A stretch of DNA of 56,365 nucleotides from Patescibacteria group bacterium (GTDB lineage: Bacteria; Patescibacteriota; Patescibacteriia; UBA9934; GWF2-40-263): positions 1-56,365 of the forward strand of contig JBBTRQ010000023.1 in assembly GCA_038065075.1 (NCBI GenBank), given 5' to 3'. A program made the translations under genes and the position numbers. Shown piece by piece: positions 51,495 through 55,044 of this stretch (its first letter is position 1; the number at the start of each line of letters is the position of its first letter). Under the pieces are notes generated by a model, which was not told where the DNA came from, did not search any database, and worked only from the letters and a program-made list of their open reading frames with translations.

Positions 51495-52607
51495 TTGGTT
51501 TATATGATCCAGTCACGCCACGAACAATTTGAAACACTCTTTCCCTCCGAGCCTGCGTTTCGATGGAAGCAAATCGAAGGTGCGTTTTTTTCGTCGGCAA
51601 AAAGTTGGGACGACGTGACGACCATCTCAAAGTCGATGCGCGAGAAGCTGGCAGTCATCCCATGGATGAGCGTTACCTCACAGACAGTTCAAGTCAGCGG
51701 TAACGGGGACACGCACAAGGCGCTTCTCAGAGTCGAGGGCGACAAGGAAATCGAAACCGTCCTCATGAAAAACCGTGCGGGTGCCTGGACGATCTGCGTC
51801 TCATCTCAAGTGGGCTGTGCCATGCGCTGTGGTTTTTGCGCGACCGGCAAGATGGGTCTCACACGCAGTCTCATCGCCGACGAGATCGTGGACCAGTATC
51901 GATTTTGGCAACGATATCTGGTAGACCCGGGCTTTCCTGCCAGCCATAGCTTTAGCGACGGCGGGAGCCCGGGCGCACCCAGGCTGAAGCCTGGGACTAC
52001 CGAGAGAATCAGCAACATCGTCTTCATGGGCATGGGCGAGCCGCTCGCCAACTACGAGGAAGTAAAGCTGACGCTCAACACCCTTTTGAAATTTACCGAC
52101 CTTGGCGAGACCCGCCTCATGGTCTCCACCGTGGGCGTGCTCCCACGACTCGAACAGCTCCTCACGGACCCAGAGTGGCCACACGTGCGTCTGGCCGTTT
52201 CGCTTCACTCCGCTATCGAAGAGACACGCAAAAAAATCGTACCAACCAGTTACGACGAATTTCTTCCTAAACTATCCGACTGGGCGAAGCGCTACCTTCA
52301 AAAATTCGGCAATCGCCGTCACCACCTCACCTTTGAATACGTCATGCTCAAGGGCGTGAACGACTCACCCGCGCATGCCAAGGCGCTGGCCGTCTTCGTG
52401 AACCGCATCGGACGGATCAAGGTCAATCTCATTCCCTACAACCTTACGGACTGCGAATATCAACGGTCAACGGACACGACGATCACCGCCTTTCTTGATA
52501 CCCTCGCGCGCAATCACGTCACGGCCACCATCCGCCACACGATGGGTGACGACATCAATGCCGCCTGCGGACAGCTCATCGTCAATCAAACGGCCACGAC
52601 CGAGTAA
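51495..52607 (+). CDS. rlmN: 23S rRNA/tRNA adenine-C2 methyltransferase RlmN (radical SAM), carrying an in-frame hairpin element
   Basis: CAMRCGFCATG, NIVFMGMGEPLANY and a C-terminal ..CGQL motif. Confidence 0.9.
   Translation: MVYMIQSRHEQFETLFPSEPAFRWKQIEGAFFSSAKSWDDVTTISKSMREKLAVIPWMSVTSQTVQVSGNGDTHKALLRVEGDKEIETVLMKNRAGAWTICVSSQVGCAMRCGFCATGKMGLTRSLIADEIVDQYRFWQRYLVDPGFPASHSFSDGGSPGAPRLKPGTTERISNIVFMGMGEPLANYEEVKLTLNTLLKFTDLGETRLMVSTVGVLPRLEQLLTDPEWPHVRLAVSLHSAIEETRKKIVPTSYDEFLPKLSDWAKRYLQKFGNRRHHLTFEYVMLKGVNDSPAHAKALAVFVNRIGRIKVNLIPYNLTDCEYQRSTDTTITAFLDTLARNHVTATIRHTMGDDINAACGQLIVNQTATTE
51926..51973 (+). repeat. hairpin element copy inside rlmN
   Basis: CCCGGGCTTTCCTGCCAGCCATAGCTTTAGCGACGGCGGGAGCCCGGG is translated as DPGFPASHSFSDGGSPG. 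It is followed by the short hairpin CCCAGGCTGAAGCCTGGG (51978-51995). Confidence 0.85.
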
Positions 52608-52666
52608 CCCATTGAGCTTGACAGCCGCGGCGGGGCTGTGCTAGTCTCTAAGCACAACTGAAGAAA

Positions 52667-52785
52667 ACGTATTCAGAGTGTAGCGAGGGAACTAGCCCGA
52701 TGACCTGCCCGCAACCTACTCGCAAGAGCAAGGTGCGACCTCTAGCCCCGCAAGGGGAAAGATGCAACGGCAAAGCTGAATACGT
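52667..52785 (+). promoter_or_regulatory. SAM-I (S-box)-like riboswitch aptamer
   Basis: P1 is ACGTATTCAG/CTGAATACGT. The core AGAGTGTAGCGAGGGAACTAGCCCGATGACCTGCCCGCAACC..GGTGCGACCTCTAGCC..CCCCGCAAGGGGAAAGATG matches the conserved S-box string GAGGGA-CUGGCCCGAUGA-CC-GGCAACC..GGUGC..GAAAGAUG. P3 covaries (CGCAACC/GGTGCG). Confidence 0.65.
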
Positions 52786-52913
52786 CGCCCACAAGGCGAT
52801 CGTTTTGTTTAGACGATCCCCCTGCAGGCGACGTATTCGCCAAACCGTCTGATTAAGCGCGTCTTTCCATCATGGGAAGGCGCGTTTGTTCTTTCACAAC
52901 CAGGGAGGACGGC

Positions 52914-53153
52914 ATGACCGACCACAACCCAGAGCCCGACGACTTCGTCTTCAACGACACGGCGCCGGCCGGACTCGCGCGATCGCCATACGGCTGCGCA
53001 GACGAGGACGCACTCATCCGCGAACTGGACTTCCGCCGCGCCCGTGAACGGTTAGAGCAGGGTCTGGATCCGCTCACCGGCAAGCCCTACAACCGCTCGG
53101 TGGATCCCTTCGCCACCACCTGGGATCTGGAGCCGATCGAGGAGTCATTGTGA
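52914..53153 (+). CDS. hypothetical acidic protein (79 aa), GC-rich
   Basis: GGGAGG lies 5 nt before ATG 52914. It is the first ORF after the riboswitch and its hairpins. Confidence 0.5.
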   Translation: MTDHNPEPDDFVFNDTAPAGLARSPYGCADEDALIRELDFRRARERLEQGLDPLTGKPYNRSVDPFATTWDLEPIEESL

Positions 53154-53374
53154 TCCTCTTCCAACCCTGTTCGTACCATTATCCGGAACTACTCGGATAC
53201 GAGCGACTCGAGTGGGCCGCGAGCATGGGTCGAGCGCATGATCGCAAGACGCGGTGTCTTCCTCGTGCCCGAGAAACCTGGCCGCCTTGAAAAACGACGC
53301 GGTCGTGAACACCTCACGACCCTTTTCCCCGCCCTGCGACATTCCGTCGTAGGGCGGGGACGAAGGAGCCCATC

Positions 53375-53806
53375 ATGTCCGTCATCGCTCTGGAACGTCC
53401 GGCTATCGAGGCTGTGCTCATCCGTGTTGACCCTCAAGAGTTCGAGCGTCAGCGTTTGCGCTTCACATCCGGTCTGCGCGTCCCTGGCCTCGCTCGCTAC
53501 GAACTCCGCGGCACTCCCGTCCGCTTCGCAGGAGTGAGTCAGGGTGGAGGAATCGACTCGCACTCGAGCAAGCGCGTCGGTGTGTTCGTGGAACGGTCAG
53601 GAGCATCTGGACTCTACGAGCCGCCGCACGAAGCAGTGCGCTCGTGCGATCTTCTCGTCGTCGTGCGTGCCCCAACAGCACGAGAACGAGCGGAAAGCCC
53701 ACTCAAACTCAGCGCCCTGAGGATCGTCGAGGCCGTTCGACTGCGTCCGGGCTCGCTCGAAGGCTTGGAAAGCCTTGAGATCACCGAACCGTTCGTCGTC
53801 TGCTGA
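53375..53806 (+). CDS. hypothetical protein (143 aa), GC-rich
   Basis: AAGGAG lies 6 nt before the ATG. No family recognised. Confidence 0.5.
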   Translation: MSVIALERPAIEAVLIRVDPQEFERQRLRFTSGLRVPGLARYELRGTPVRFAGVSQGGGIDSHSSKRVGVFVERSGASGLYEPPHEAVRSCDLLVVVRAPTARERAESPLKLSALRIVEAVRLRPGSLEGLESLEITEPFVVC

Positions 53807-53890
53807 ACCAACGAGCAGCGGTACGATCCGCTGCTTTTTCTTGACGAGCGACGCTGGATTCTCTAGGCTCCCCTTGAAAGGAGAGAGCCG

Positions 53891-54313
53891 ATGAGTCTCA
53901 CCGAACGTCCCAAGTGGCGCATGACCCGCTGCGAAGCGCAGGTGATCCTGGATCTGGAGGCGCTGAATCGCGCCCTGCGCGCGCCCGAGCGCTGGGTACC
54001 AGAGCCGCTCATCACGCTCTTGATGAGTGCGCGCAAGGGCGGCCGACCGCATGTCACTCTGCGTACGCTCAAGAAGCAGGGCTATGTCGAGTACGACCCG
54101 ACCCAGCTGGCCTGGCGCCGAACCGGCAAGCCGGTTCCTCGACCCGAAGTGCTGTCGGGCGACGCGCCCAACCCGATCCCGCAAGACGCCATGAGCCGGC
54201 TCGCGACTGCATGGAGACGCGGACGTCGCTCCTTCACGCTGGAGGATCTCGCCGCAACGCCGCCGGATCTCAAGGGCGTTCCCAAGTCCAGTCCCAAACG
54301 CGGCCGCGCATGA
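53891..54313 (+). CDS. hypothetical basic protein (140 aa), possibly wHTH, GC-rich
   Basis: AAGGAG lies 7 nt before the ATG. The segment ..VTLRTLKKQGYVEYD.. is winged-helix-like. Confidence 0.45.
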   Translation: MSLTERPKWRMTRCEAQVILDLEALNRALRAPERWVPEPLITLLMSARKGGRPHVTLRTLKKQGYVEYDPTQLAWRRTGKPVPRPEVLSGDAPNPIPQDAMSRLATAWRRGRRSFTLEDLAATPPDLKGVPKSSPKRGRA

Positions 54314-54358
54314 GCCGCAAACGCAAAGCGGCCCTTCGATCAACTCAGGGTCGCCTCG

Positions 54359-54388
54359 CCCGCCATAGCTCGTCAGAGCGACGGCGGG
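54359..54388. repeat. hairpin element copy at the convergent junction, overlapping the last codons of trmD
   Basis: CCCGCCATAGCTCGTCAGAGCGACGGCGGG. The trmD end ..KKYPPSL* is encoded by its right arm. Confidence 0.8.
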
Positions 54389-55044
54389 TATTTCTTTTTG
54401 GATTCTTCCTCTCGCCACTGGGCGATTTTTTTGTGATCGCCGGAGAGAAGAACCTCGGGGACCTTCCAGCCTTTGTAGTCTTCCGGCTTCGTATACTGCG
54501 GATATTCTTGATAGCCTTCCTCGCTGTGCGATTCCTGTTTGAGCGACTCCGCCTCAATGACACCGGGCACCATCCGGGCAACGGCATCGATCATGACCAT
54601 GGCTGGAAGCTCGCCACCGGTGAGCACGTAGTTCCCGATCGAGAGCGCCTCATTAGCGATGTGCTCGGTTACGCGGTGGTCGATCCCCTCGTAGCGCCCG
54701 CACAGGAAAATGAGTTGATCGTATTTCGCTAAACGTCTGGCATCTTCTTGCGTGAACGTCTTTCCCGAAGCCGCCGTCACGATGACTCGCGTTTTTTTCA
54801 ACCGTCGTTTCACCTTCTTCACCGCTTTCTCAAACGGCTCCACCTTCATGACCATGCCGGCGCCGCCCCCATAGGGTGTGTCATCGACTTTGTGATGTTT
54901 GTCCGTTGACCAGTCACGTAACTGGTGGGCACGCACCTCAATGAGTTTCGCCTTCTGTGCCCGACCCAAAATCGACGCGCCCACGTAGGGCTCGACGACT
55001 TCGGGAAAGATGGTAATCACATCAAATTGAATCCTTTTGCGCAT
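54373..55044 (-). CDS. trmD: tRNA (guanine37-N1)-methyltransferase
   Basis: FDVITIFPEVVEPY.., GRYEGIDHRV, LSIGNYVLTGGELPAMVMIDAV. Confidence 0.92.
   Translation of the reverse strand: MRKRIQFDVITIFPEVVEPYVGASILGRAQKAKLIEVRAHQLRDWSTDKHHKVDDTPYGGGAGMVMKVEPFEKAVKKVKRRLKKTRVIVTAASGKTFTQEDARRLAKYDQLIFLCGRYEGIDHRVTEHIANEALSIGNYVLTGGELPAMVMIDAVARMVPGVIEAESLKQESHSEEGYQEYPQYTKPEDYKGWKVPEVLLSGDHKKIAQWREEESKKKYPPSL

Follow-up and report, generated by a model that had tools for sequence, protein, structure and literature searches.

A SAM-I riboswitch leader with one aptamer and two terminator-like hairpins ahead of small genes of unknown function in an Uhrbacteria genome

The locus and its SAM-I aptamer

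We examined a leader region that lies between rlmN and the convergent gene trmD on a 56,365-nucleotide (nt) contig of a Patescibacteria group bacterium (GenBank JBBTRQ010000023.1, assembly GCA_038065075.1); this whole stretch, contig C23 of the genome designated G000 (1.09 Mb, 54% GC), is referred to below as the window. The leader carries an aptamer of the S-adenosylmethionine (SAM)-I, or S-box, class and two terminator-like hairpins, T1 and T2, and is followed by an open reading frame (ORF1), the remnant of a gene of what we call the MILFQPC family, and ORF2; an intrinsic terminator separates these from ORF3. Coordinates are collected in Table 1. Comparisons were made with related genomes (the other G codes, with C denoting a contig within a genome) and with the metagenome contigs L046, L058 and L192.

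Table 1. Features of the leader and of the genes behind it (window positions; SD, Shine-Dalgarno sequence; P, paired region; J, joining region).
Feature	Position	Strand	Basis or remark
Putative promoter: -35 TTGACA (52618-23), extended -10 TGcTAGTCT (52639-47)	52618..52647	+	read from sequence
SAM-I (S-box) aptamer	52666..52768	+	RF00162 score, covariation in 9 leaders
Switch strand a (ACGUAUUCAG), P1 5' strand plus three J1/2 nucleotides	52667..52676	+	pairs with b or c
P1, GUAUU/GAUGC, 5 bp	52669-73/52761-65	+	Infernal alignment
P2	52678-83/52705-09	+	
P2b	52687-89/52696-98	+	
Pseudoknot CUAG:CUAG, P2 loop with J3/4	52692-95 with 52742-45	+	
P3, CGCAACC/GGUGCG, distal CUC-GCAA-GAG	52710-16/52732-37	+	
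P4, CCCC-GCAA-GGGG	52746-49/52754-57	+	
AT5 (GGAAAGAUGC), P4 3' arm, J4/1 and P1 3' strand	52756..52765	+	complementary to T2 5' arm, 52859-68
Strand b (GAUGC), canonical P1 3' strand	52761-65	+	
Long inserted hairpin	52767..52848	+	helix S 52767-70/52845-48; c:d 52778-89/52827-38; inner stem 52798-52803/52813-18
Strand c (CUGAAUACGUCGCC)	52776..52789	+	52776-85 with a; 52782-89 is T1 5' arm; 52778-89 with d
Terminator-like hairpin T1	52782..52810	+	stem 52782-89/52795-52803, C52801 bulged; U-tract UUUGUUU to 52810
Strand d	52827-38	+	pairs with c 52778-89
Candidate terminator T2	52858..52894	+	stem 52858-68/52874-84; U-tract UUUGUUCUUU, 52885-94
ORF1, 79 aa	52914..53153	+	SD GGGAGG 52903-08, ATG 52914; predicted first gene under the riboswitch
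MILFQPC-family remnant, 46 codons, in frame	53150..53290	+	alignment; start overlaps ORF1 stop
15-bp hairpin TCCCCGCCCTGCGAC/GTCGTAGGGCGGGGA	53326..53360	+	inverted repeat just upstream of ORF2 SD
ORF2, 143 aa	53375..53806	+	homologues 64-91% identical
Intrinsic terminator GAGCAGCGG-TACGAT-CCGCUGC, then UUUUUCUU	53813..53840	+	terminator scan and sequence
Separate unit: promoter-like TTGACG (53841-46), 17 nt, TAGGCT (53864-69), then ORF3 (53891-54313)	53841..54313	+	

The Rfam model RF00162 (SAM-I) matched the + strand at 52666-52768 over its full length (1-108) at 47.3 bits, the gathering threshold being 44.4 (E = 9e-8 when the whole window was scanned and 7e-10 in a local scan), and homologous leaders scored 48-61 bits. 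The preliminary description of this DNA had proposed an S-box-like riboswitch with a multi-hairpin expression platform, in agreement with this score and with an independent terminator scan that called both hairpins. SAM-IV (RF00634) and SAM-I/IV (RF01725) belong to the same clan and share a similar ligand-pocket core, but have P4 on the 3' side of P1 together with an extra pseudoknot; here P4 (52746-57) lies inside the junction and RF00162, the best model in the clan competition of cmscan, was preferred over both. We regard assignment to the SAM-I/S-box class as very nearly certain.

The identity of the aptamer, its pairings, and their conservation and covariation were established computationally, using an alignment (A7) of nine related leaders, all from one bacterial family. 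The canonical structure with its pseudoknot was paired in 96.4% of the alignment cells and 8 pairs were changed on both sides; none of 500 shuffles reached the observed pairing and slid controls gave 35-47%, figures that are not to be read as probabilities, since the sequences are related and few. The two-sided changes fall in P2, P2b, P3, P4 and the pseudoknot, so that the P3, CUAG:CUAG and P4 pairings noted earlier are present and covary in relatives; P1 has two pairs that vary on one side only. Between the window and L046, for example, P2b changes from GGG/CCC to GAG/CUC, P3 from CGCAACC/GGUGCG to GGCAACC/GGUGCC, and the pseudoknot (94% paired in A7, with 2 of its 4 pairs doubly changed) from CUAG:CUAG to CUGG:CCAG. 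P1, as well as P3, is conserved across the nine leaders, and P1 is exactly 5 bp in each of them, with a closing pair that is U.G, U-A or C-G. The 10-bp helix that had been taken for P1 is real, conserved and covarying, but it is a different helix, described below; Infernal places P1 where Table 1 has it.

Transcription would start near 52654 (ACAACUGAAG...), judging from the sequence upstream. The TTGACA at 52618, its spacing and a TAGnnT/TATnnT hexamer recur before the homologous leaders of G012, L046, L058, G018, G015, G025 and G036, which lends support to the promoter suggested earlier; a strict sigma-70 consensus scan made no call on 52618-47 because the -10 hexamer matches at only 3 of 6 positions.

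Leader types, alternative helices and terminators

RF00162 matches were found in 20 of 61 related genomes. The genome under study carries a second SAM-I riboswitch (C36:17342-17466, or L002 1501-1625; 45.5 bits) directly upstream of metK, with a single terminator and a long insertion in P3. Alignment of the two leaders begins at the common start ACAACUGAAG, spans the aptamer and ends with the terminator UCUUUCCAU..UGGGAAG and its U-run, the window leader having a shorter P3 and about 85 extra nt between aptamer and terminator; on this alignment it is clearly a paralogue of the genome's own metK leader. Two types of leader can be separated within the family: the metK type (...CUAUCAAGAG...GAAAGAUAAUUUGUAAU, one terminator, then metK), of which nine relatives have examples, and the window type (...GUAUUCAGAG...GAAAGAUGC-spacer-CUGAAUACGU, then T1). 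Both share lineage, aptamer class, start, core and a UCUUUCC...GGGAAG terminator, whereas the window leader lies away from metK, has an additional module made of the a:c helix, T1 and strand d, and heads a variable stretch of genes. A dual form, with T1, d and T2, is found in the window, L046, L058, L192, G012, G025, G031 and G063; a form with T1 only in G018 and G015; and the G036 leader has the window-type aptamer and start, without strand c and T1, and a T2-type terminator only. The family-wide pattern search also gave three false positives in coding DNA (in G006, G033 and trmD of G063), which were set aside.

The 5' strand of P1 (strand a) has two possible partners. Besides strand b, with which it forms P1, it pairs with strand c in a 10-bp helix (ACGUAUUCAG/CUGAAUACGU, 52667-76 with 52776-85) that was 97.8% paired in the nine leaders, with 3 compensatory pairs, against 19-37% for slid controls. 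Since a:b and a:c use the same 5' strand they are mutually exclusive, and to judge from the alignment both are kept by selection. In all T1-bearing leaders tested, predicted duplex energies were -2.2 to -5.8 kcal/mol for a:b and -12.6 to -18.3 kcal/mol for a:c; a:c was absent (-5 to -6 kcal/mol) from two tested leaders having a T2-type terminator alone.

Strand c also provides the 5' arm of T1, a hairpin found in 9 of 9 leaders and called independently at 52784-52800, followed by CGTTTTGTTT, in the terminator scan (which returned 9 terminator-like sites for the region, where chance alone would give 1.6). Nearest-neighbour energies calculated without ligand favour the a:c state over the a:b state by 10.6 kcal/mol. 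As long as c is free, the lower stem of the 8-bp T1 contributes -8.0 kcal/mol; with a:c formed, extension of T1 from 4 to 6 bp costs +0.9 and to 8 bp +5.9 kcal/mol. Because c overlaps the lower stem of T1 and this extension costs energy when a:c is formed, we read a:c as a probable antiterminator of T1.

Strand c has a further perfect complement of 12 nt in strand d (GAATACGTCGCC at 52778-89 and GGCGACGTATTC at 52827-38), a pairing that had been noted earlier with coordinates one base too high. The c:d complementarity, together with the length, perfection, conservation and covariation of a:c, could be taken to mean that a:c is itself the ligand-stabilised P1, in which case GAUGC would belong to a long J4/1 and P1 would be opened by the formation of c:d. 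However, a:c takes up three nucleotides of the four in J1/2, a segment that the SAM-I model leaves single-stranded near the ligand pocket; the canonical ...GAAAGAUGC... 3' strand of P1 with its conserved AU is kept, with the variable closing pair; leaders with T1 only have no d; and c:d cannot prevent T1, because d is transcribed after it. We consider a:c in the role of P1 unlikely, and treat it as the competitor of a 5-bp P1.

Strands c and d lie in the arms of a long hairpin that was recovered as an inverted repeat, with a minimum free energy (MFE) of -42.1 kcal/mol (z = -7.8; z = -4.3 to -7.1 for the equivalent inserts of five other leaders). Its closing helix S covaries (ACGG/CCGU in the window, CAGA/UCUG in L058, AGGAAG/CUUCCU in G031). 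All seven other dual leaders carry strand d and the T1-only leaders G018 and G015 do not, a distribution that fits a role of d in setting strand a free for a second use of the aptamer. When compared with the metK leader the hairpin does resemble an insertion, and this palindrome of about 80 nt might be a selfish repeat (of the repetitive extragenic palindrome (REP) or miniature inverted-repeat transposable element (MITE) kind) that landed in a metK-like leader. Its arms, and the leader hairpins in general, have no other copy in the genome; leaders from five genera carry the hairpin at one and the same position, with compensatory changes; and the sequence of its 5' arm varies together with that of the P1 5' strand. 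An origin as a selfish repeat seems hardly credible.

Downstream of it, AT5 is predicted to pair with the 5' arm of T2 over 10 bp at -17.0 kcal/mol (the five further dual leaders that were tested gave -14.7 to -22.3 kcal/mol), so that, as in other S-box platforms, the 5' arm of the terminator can pair alternatively with the 3' part of the aptamer. In the terminator scan T2 was called at 52854-52888, with TTCTTT after it. T2 is homologous to the metK-leader terminator and is conserved in seven dual leaders, and the AT5/T2 arrangement is likewise present in the metK leader.

Genes behind the leader and the variable rlmN-trmD interval

The leader lies between rlmN and the convergent trmD in G000, G012, G036, G063, G031 and G025 (in the last, no rlmN match was found and the riboswitch lies about 2 kb from trmD), and rlmN is also upstream of it in L046, L192 and L058. 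This same syntenic place in five genera argues that the riboswitch is old at the locus, against the earlier suggestion that it was stranded there or carried in by an insertion. The genes between riboswitch and trmD amount to 1.4 to about 10 kb and appear, from these comparisons, to turn over. The rlmN matches of G031:C43, G018:C1 and G015:C2 were split in two around residues 143-166. A further observation made in G015 was a group I intron (RF00028, 76 bits; L033 3915-4165) within the 16S rRNA gene (L033 3150-5338, G015:C6).

Two of the relatives tie the leader type to SAM metabolism, since it precedes, or shares an operon with, a gene for 5'-methylthioadenosine/S-adenosylhomocysteine (MTA/SAH) nucleosidase. 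In G063 the dual leader lies directly before this gene (NF004079, 172 bits); in G012 it is followed by a major-vault-protein-like gene (L031 3261-5141, G012:C5; 626 aa, with Pfam MVP_shoulder, Vault repeats and Band_7), then by the nucleosidase gene, and beyond that by genes for an AAA_5 ATPase and a DUF7192 protein.

The genes in the window are of another kind. ORF1, ORF2 and ORF3 had no match in Pfam, PHROG or NCBIfam, and neither ORF1 nor ORF2 is recognisable as one of the methionine, cysteine or SAM genes that make up an S-box regulon, as the preliminary description had also judged. The SD and ATG of ORF1 are positioned as described there. ORF1 has a coding-like GC content by codon position (0.68/0.46/0.80) and homologues that are 80-85% identical; the ratio of nonsynonymous to synonymous substitution rates (dN/dS) was 0.19-0.25 for ORF1 and 0.26 for ORF2, and both are thus under purifying selection. 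The remnant that overlaps the end of ORF1 is without about 106 internal codons of the MILFQPC family, whose intact members have 152-156 aa, an invariant MILFQPC N-terminus and a C-terminus of the form C..P.A..TWPP; a role of the conserved Cys and His residues in metal binding is possible. Intact copies lie behind ORF1 in L046 and directly behind SAM leaders in G036 and L058, and distant homologues of ORF2 adjoin MILFQPC genes in G036 and L060. The hairpin upstream of ORF2 lacks a U-tract and occurs only once in the genome. Structure prediction with AlphaFold2 gave models of low confidence for the MILFQPC family (predicted local distance difference test score, pLDDT, 58) and ORF2 (pLDDT 42); for the MILFQPC family a profile search of PDB was without match, and Foldseek with this model against PDB gave a best E of 3. 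Taken together, Pfam, PHROG, NCBIfam, PDB sequences and Foldseek yielded nothing that accounts for ORF1, ORF2 or the MILFQPC family.

The riboswitch unit probably ends with ORF2, and the intrinsic terminator at 53813-40 appears to mark this end. ORF3, which the preliminary description had counted with ORF1 and ORF2, lies behind this terminator and has a promoter-like site of its own, and is therefore probably outside riboswitch control. It encodes 140 aa and has 17 homologues, in a family of 125-142 aa proteins with additional forms of about 256-288 aa; the family profile resembles the LexA N-terminal domain weakly (E = 0.058), and ORF3 may be a small DNA-binding protein with a winged-helix N-terminal domain. 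A 273-aa frame on the - strand (53597-54418) overlaps the conserved ORF2 and ORF3 and was rejected as a gene, being without homology support. One aquifer metatranscriptome contig (run X15, 160 nt, one difference) covers 53747-53906, that is the end of ORF2, the terminator and the start of ORF3; it is a weak hint of transcription across this junction, or represents DNA carry-over.

The linkage of riboswitch and ORF1 recurs in the diverged contig L046, where ORF1 is 80% identical and the region from promoter to ATG is 87% identical at a synonymous divergence (dS) of 0.70 for ORF1; that the leader is this similar at such a dS means that the platform is under constraint. These data bear on whether the riboswitch might be a relic, which lost its methionine or SAM cargo through rearrangement or insertion and is now decaying before unrelated or spurious frames. 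The rlmN-trmD region is variable, and three species of the same genus (G003, G004, G005) lack the riboswitch at this place and carry different genes; one of the genes behind the leader is reduced to an in-frame deletion remnant; and the GC content of the region is 4-10 points above the genome mean, all of which would suit a relic. Aptamer and platform are nonetheless intact and conserved in L046 as stated, the dN/dS values of ORF1 and ORF2 are low, the same arrangement was assembled from several independent samples, and the same gene families stand behind SAM leaders in G036, L046 and L058. Decay of the switch is thus already disfavoured and we hold it to be very improbable. The linkage in L046, the neighbouring families behind leaders in G036 and L058 and the purifying selection on ORF1 and ORF2 fit the other possibility raised at the outset, a new set of SAM-regulated genes.

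Proposed control by SAM and its setting

We propose that the leader is a SAM-I OFF riboswitch which, from its own promoter, would govern a small operon (ORF1, the decayed MILFQPC-family gene and ORF2) by premature transcription termination, with one aptamer feeding two serial terminators. In the first step, once strand b has been made, SAM would lock the 5-bp P1 (a:b); strand c would then be free, T1 would close its full 8-bp stem at the U-tract, and transcription would stop near 52803-10. Without SAM, c would capture a (10 bp, favoured by about 10 kcal/mol over a:b), the lower stem of T1 would be withheld, and polymerase would read through. In the second step d would draw c into the long hairpin, freeing a, and the aptamer would get a second chance at SAM: with SAM bound, AT5 would be held in P4 and P1 and T2 would form; without it, AT5 would pair over 10 bp with the 5' arm of T2, forming an antiterminator that stacks on the long hairpin, and ORF1 to ORF2 would be transcribed. 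From the modelled helices we infer that SAM is bound, that T1 and T2 terminate transcription, and that the events follow in this order. OFF control by termination seems to us likely on these grounds; for the two-checkpoint mechanism we would give a probability of roughly 0.45.

Several observations weigh against this proposal. The Rfam score is just 2.9 bits above the cut-off, and the shuffle statistics are inflated by the use of nine phylogenetically related leaders of one family. In the predicted MFE structure of RNA ending at T1, a T1 of 6 bp coexists with 8 bp of a:c, which means that competition spans only the bottom 2-4 pairs and that an effect on termination would have to be kinetic. 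The T1 stem is short (5-6 perfect pairs) and could be a pause site, not a terminator. The predicted MFE of the full leader always contains T2; with T1 and T2 both present in MFE structures, both decisions must be kinetic, like those of other transcriptional riboswitches. Finally, the sole metatranscriptome contig lies outside the leader.

Some of these points would suit an ordinary S-box leader with a single checkpoint, in which only AT5 and T2 regulate and the insert, T1 and a:c serve as spacer, pause element or folding chaperone (e.g., holding a until the platform is complete). T2 and AT5 are homologous to the complete and sufficient platforms of the metK leader and of G036a, the short T1 still forms beside a:c, and a hairpin with a U-run is the signature of a pause site too. 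However, G018 and G015 carry aptamer, a:c and T1 with neither T2 nor d, so that T1 is the sole candidate for a regulatory decision there, and a:c accompanies T1 in all T1-bearing leaders that were tested, while leaders with a T2-type terminator alone lack it. A single checkpoint is rather unlikely in our view.

The S-box mechanism is reportedly exemplified by the yitJ and metK leaders of Bacillus subtilis. The window leader has the same four-way junction of P1-P4, the same pseudoknot between P2 loop and J3/4 and the same conserved core strings; its T2-type terminator, with a 5' arm able to pair with the P1 3' strand and the P4 3' arm, would likewise turn the genes OFF by termination; and its paralogue stands before metK in the same genome. 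It differs in that P1 is only 5 bp and its 5' strand has a second, much stronger partner in c, in the hairpin of about 80 nt with an internal T1 between aptamer and T2, and in heading genes for unknown small proteins in place of methionine, cysteine or SAM genes. Tandem riboswitches, in which two complete switches stand one after the other, are said to include the metE leader of Bacillus clausii, with SAM and adenosylcobalamin (AdoCbl) elements, and tandem thiamine pyrophosphate (TPP) leaders. They share with the window leader two serial intrinsic terminators, which offer two points at which transcription can end and could in principle make the response steeper; the window leader has one aptamer (a single RF00162 match in 52550-53000 even at E <= 10), and the second decision would reuse this aptamer after d resets it.

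The riboswitch class is known; a copy away from metK with a predicted three-strand exchange and two serial terminators from one aptamer is new, and so is the set of unknown proteins that recurs as cargo where a variable locus begins. A search of the literature collection at hand found no paper on natural SAM riboswitches of bacteria of the candidate phyla radiation (CPR) or on a SAM-I leader with tandem terminators. A wider proposal, which is possible but which we advance with some doubt, is that the aptamer is read twice in each round of transcription (the strand swap gating T1, d resetting the aptamer, and T2 then being gated), giving a steep, tandem-like response without a second aptamer; that the device is the fixed gate of a fast-changing accessory stretch between rlmN and trmD in Uhrbacteria; and that the families of ORF1, MILFQPC and ORF2 are previously unknown SAM-linked proteins.

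The genomes of Uhrbacteria and other CPR bacteria are tiny, little is known of their regulation, and the function of many of their proteins has not been assigned. A switch that senses a metabolite is a rare functional handle on such proteins, and here it would mean that those of ORF1, ORF2 and the MILFQPC family are wanted only when SAM is low; to judge from the link to MTA/SAH nucleosidase, they may take part in recycling or scavenging SAM. If the mechanism is as proposed, serving two terminators from one aptamer by three-strand exchange would be a compact way to sharpen the response of a riboswitch.

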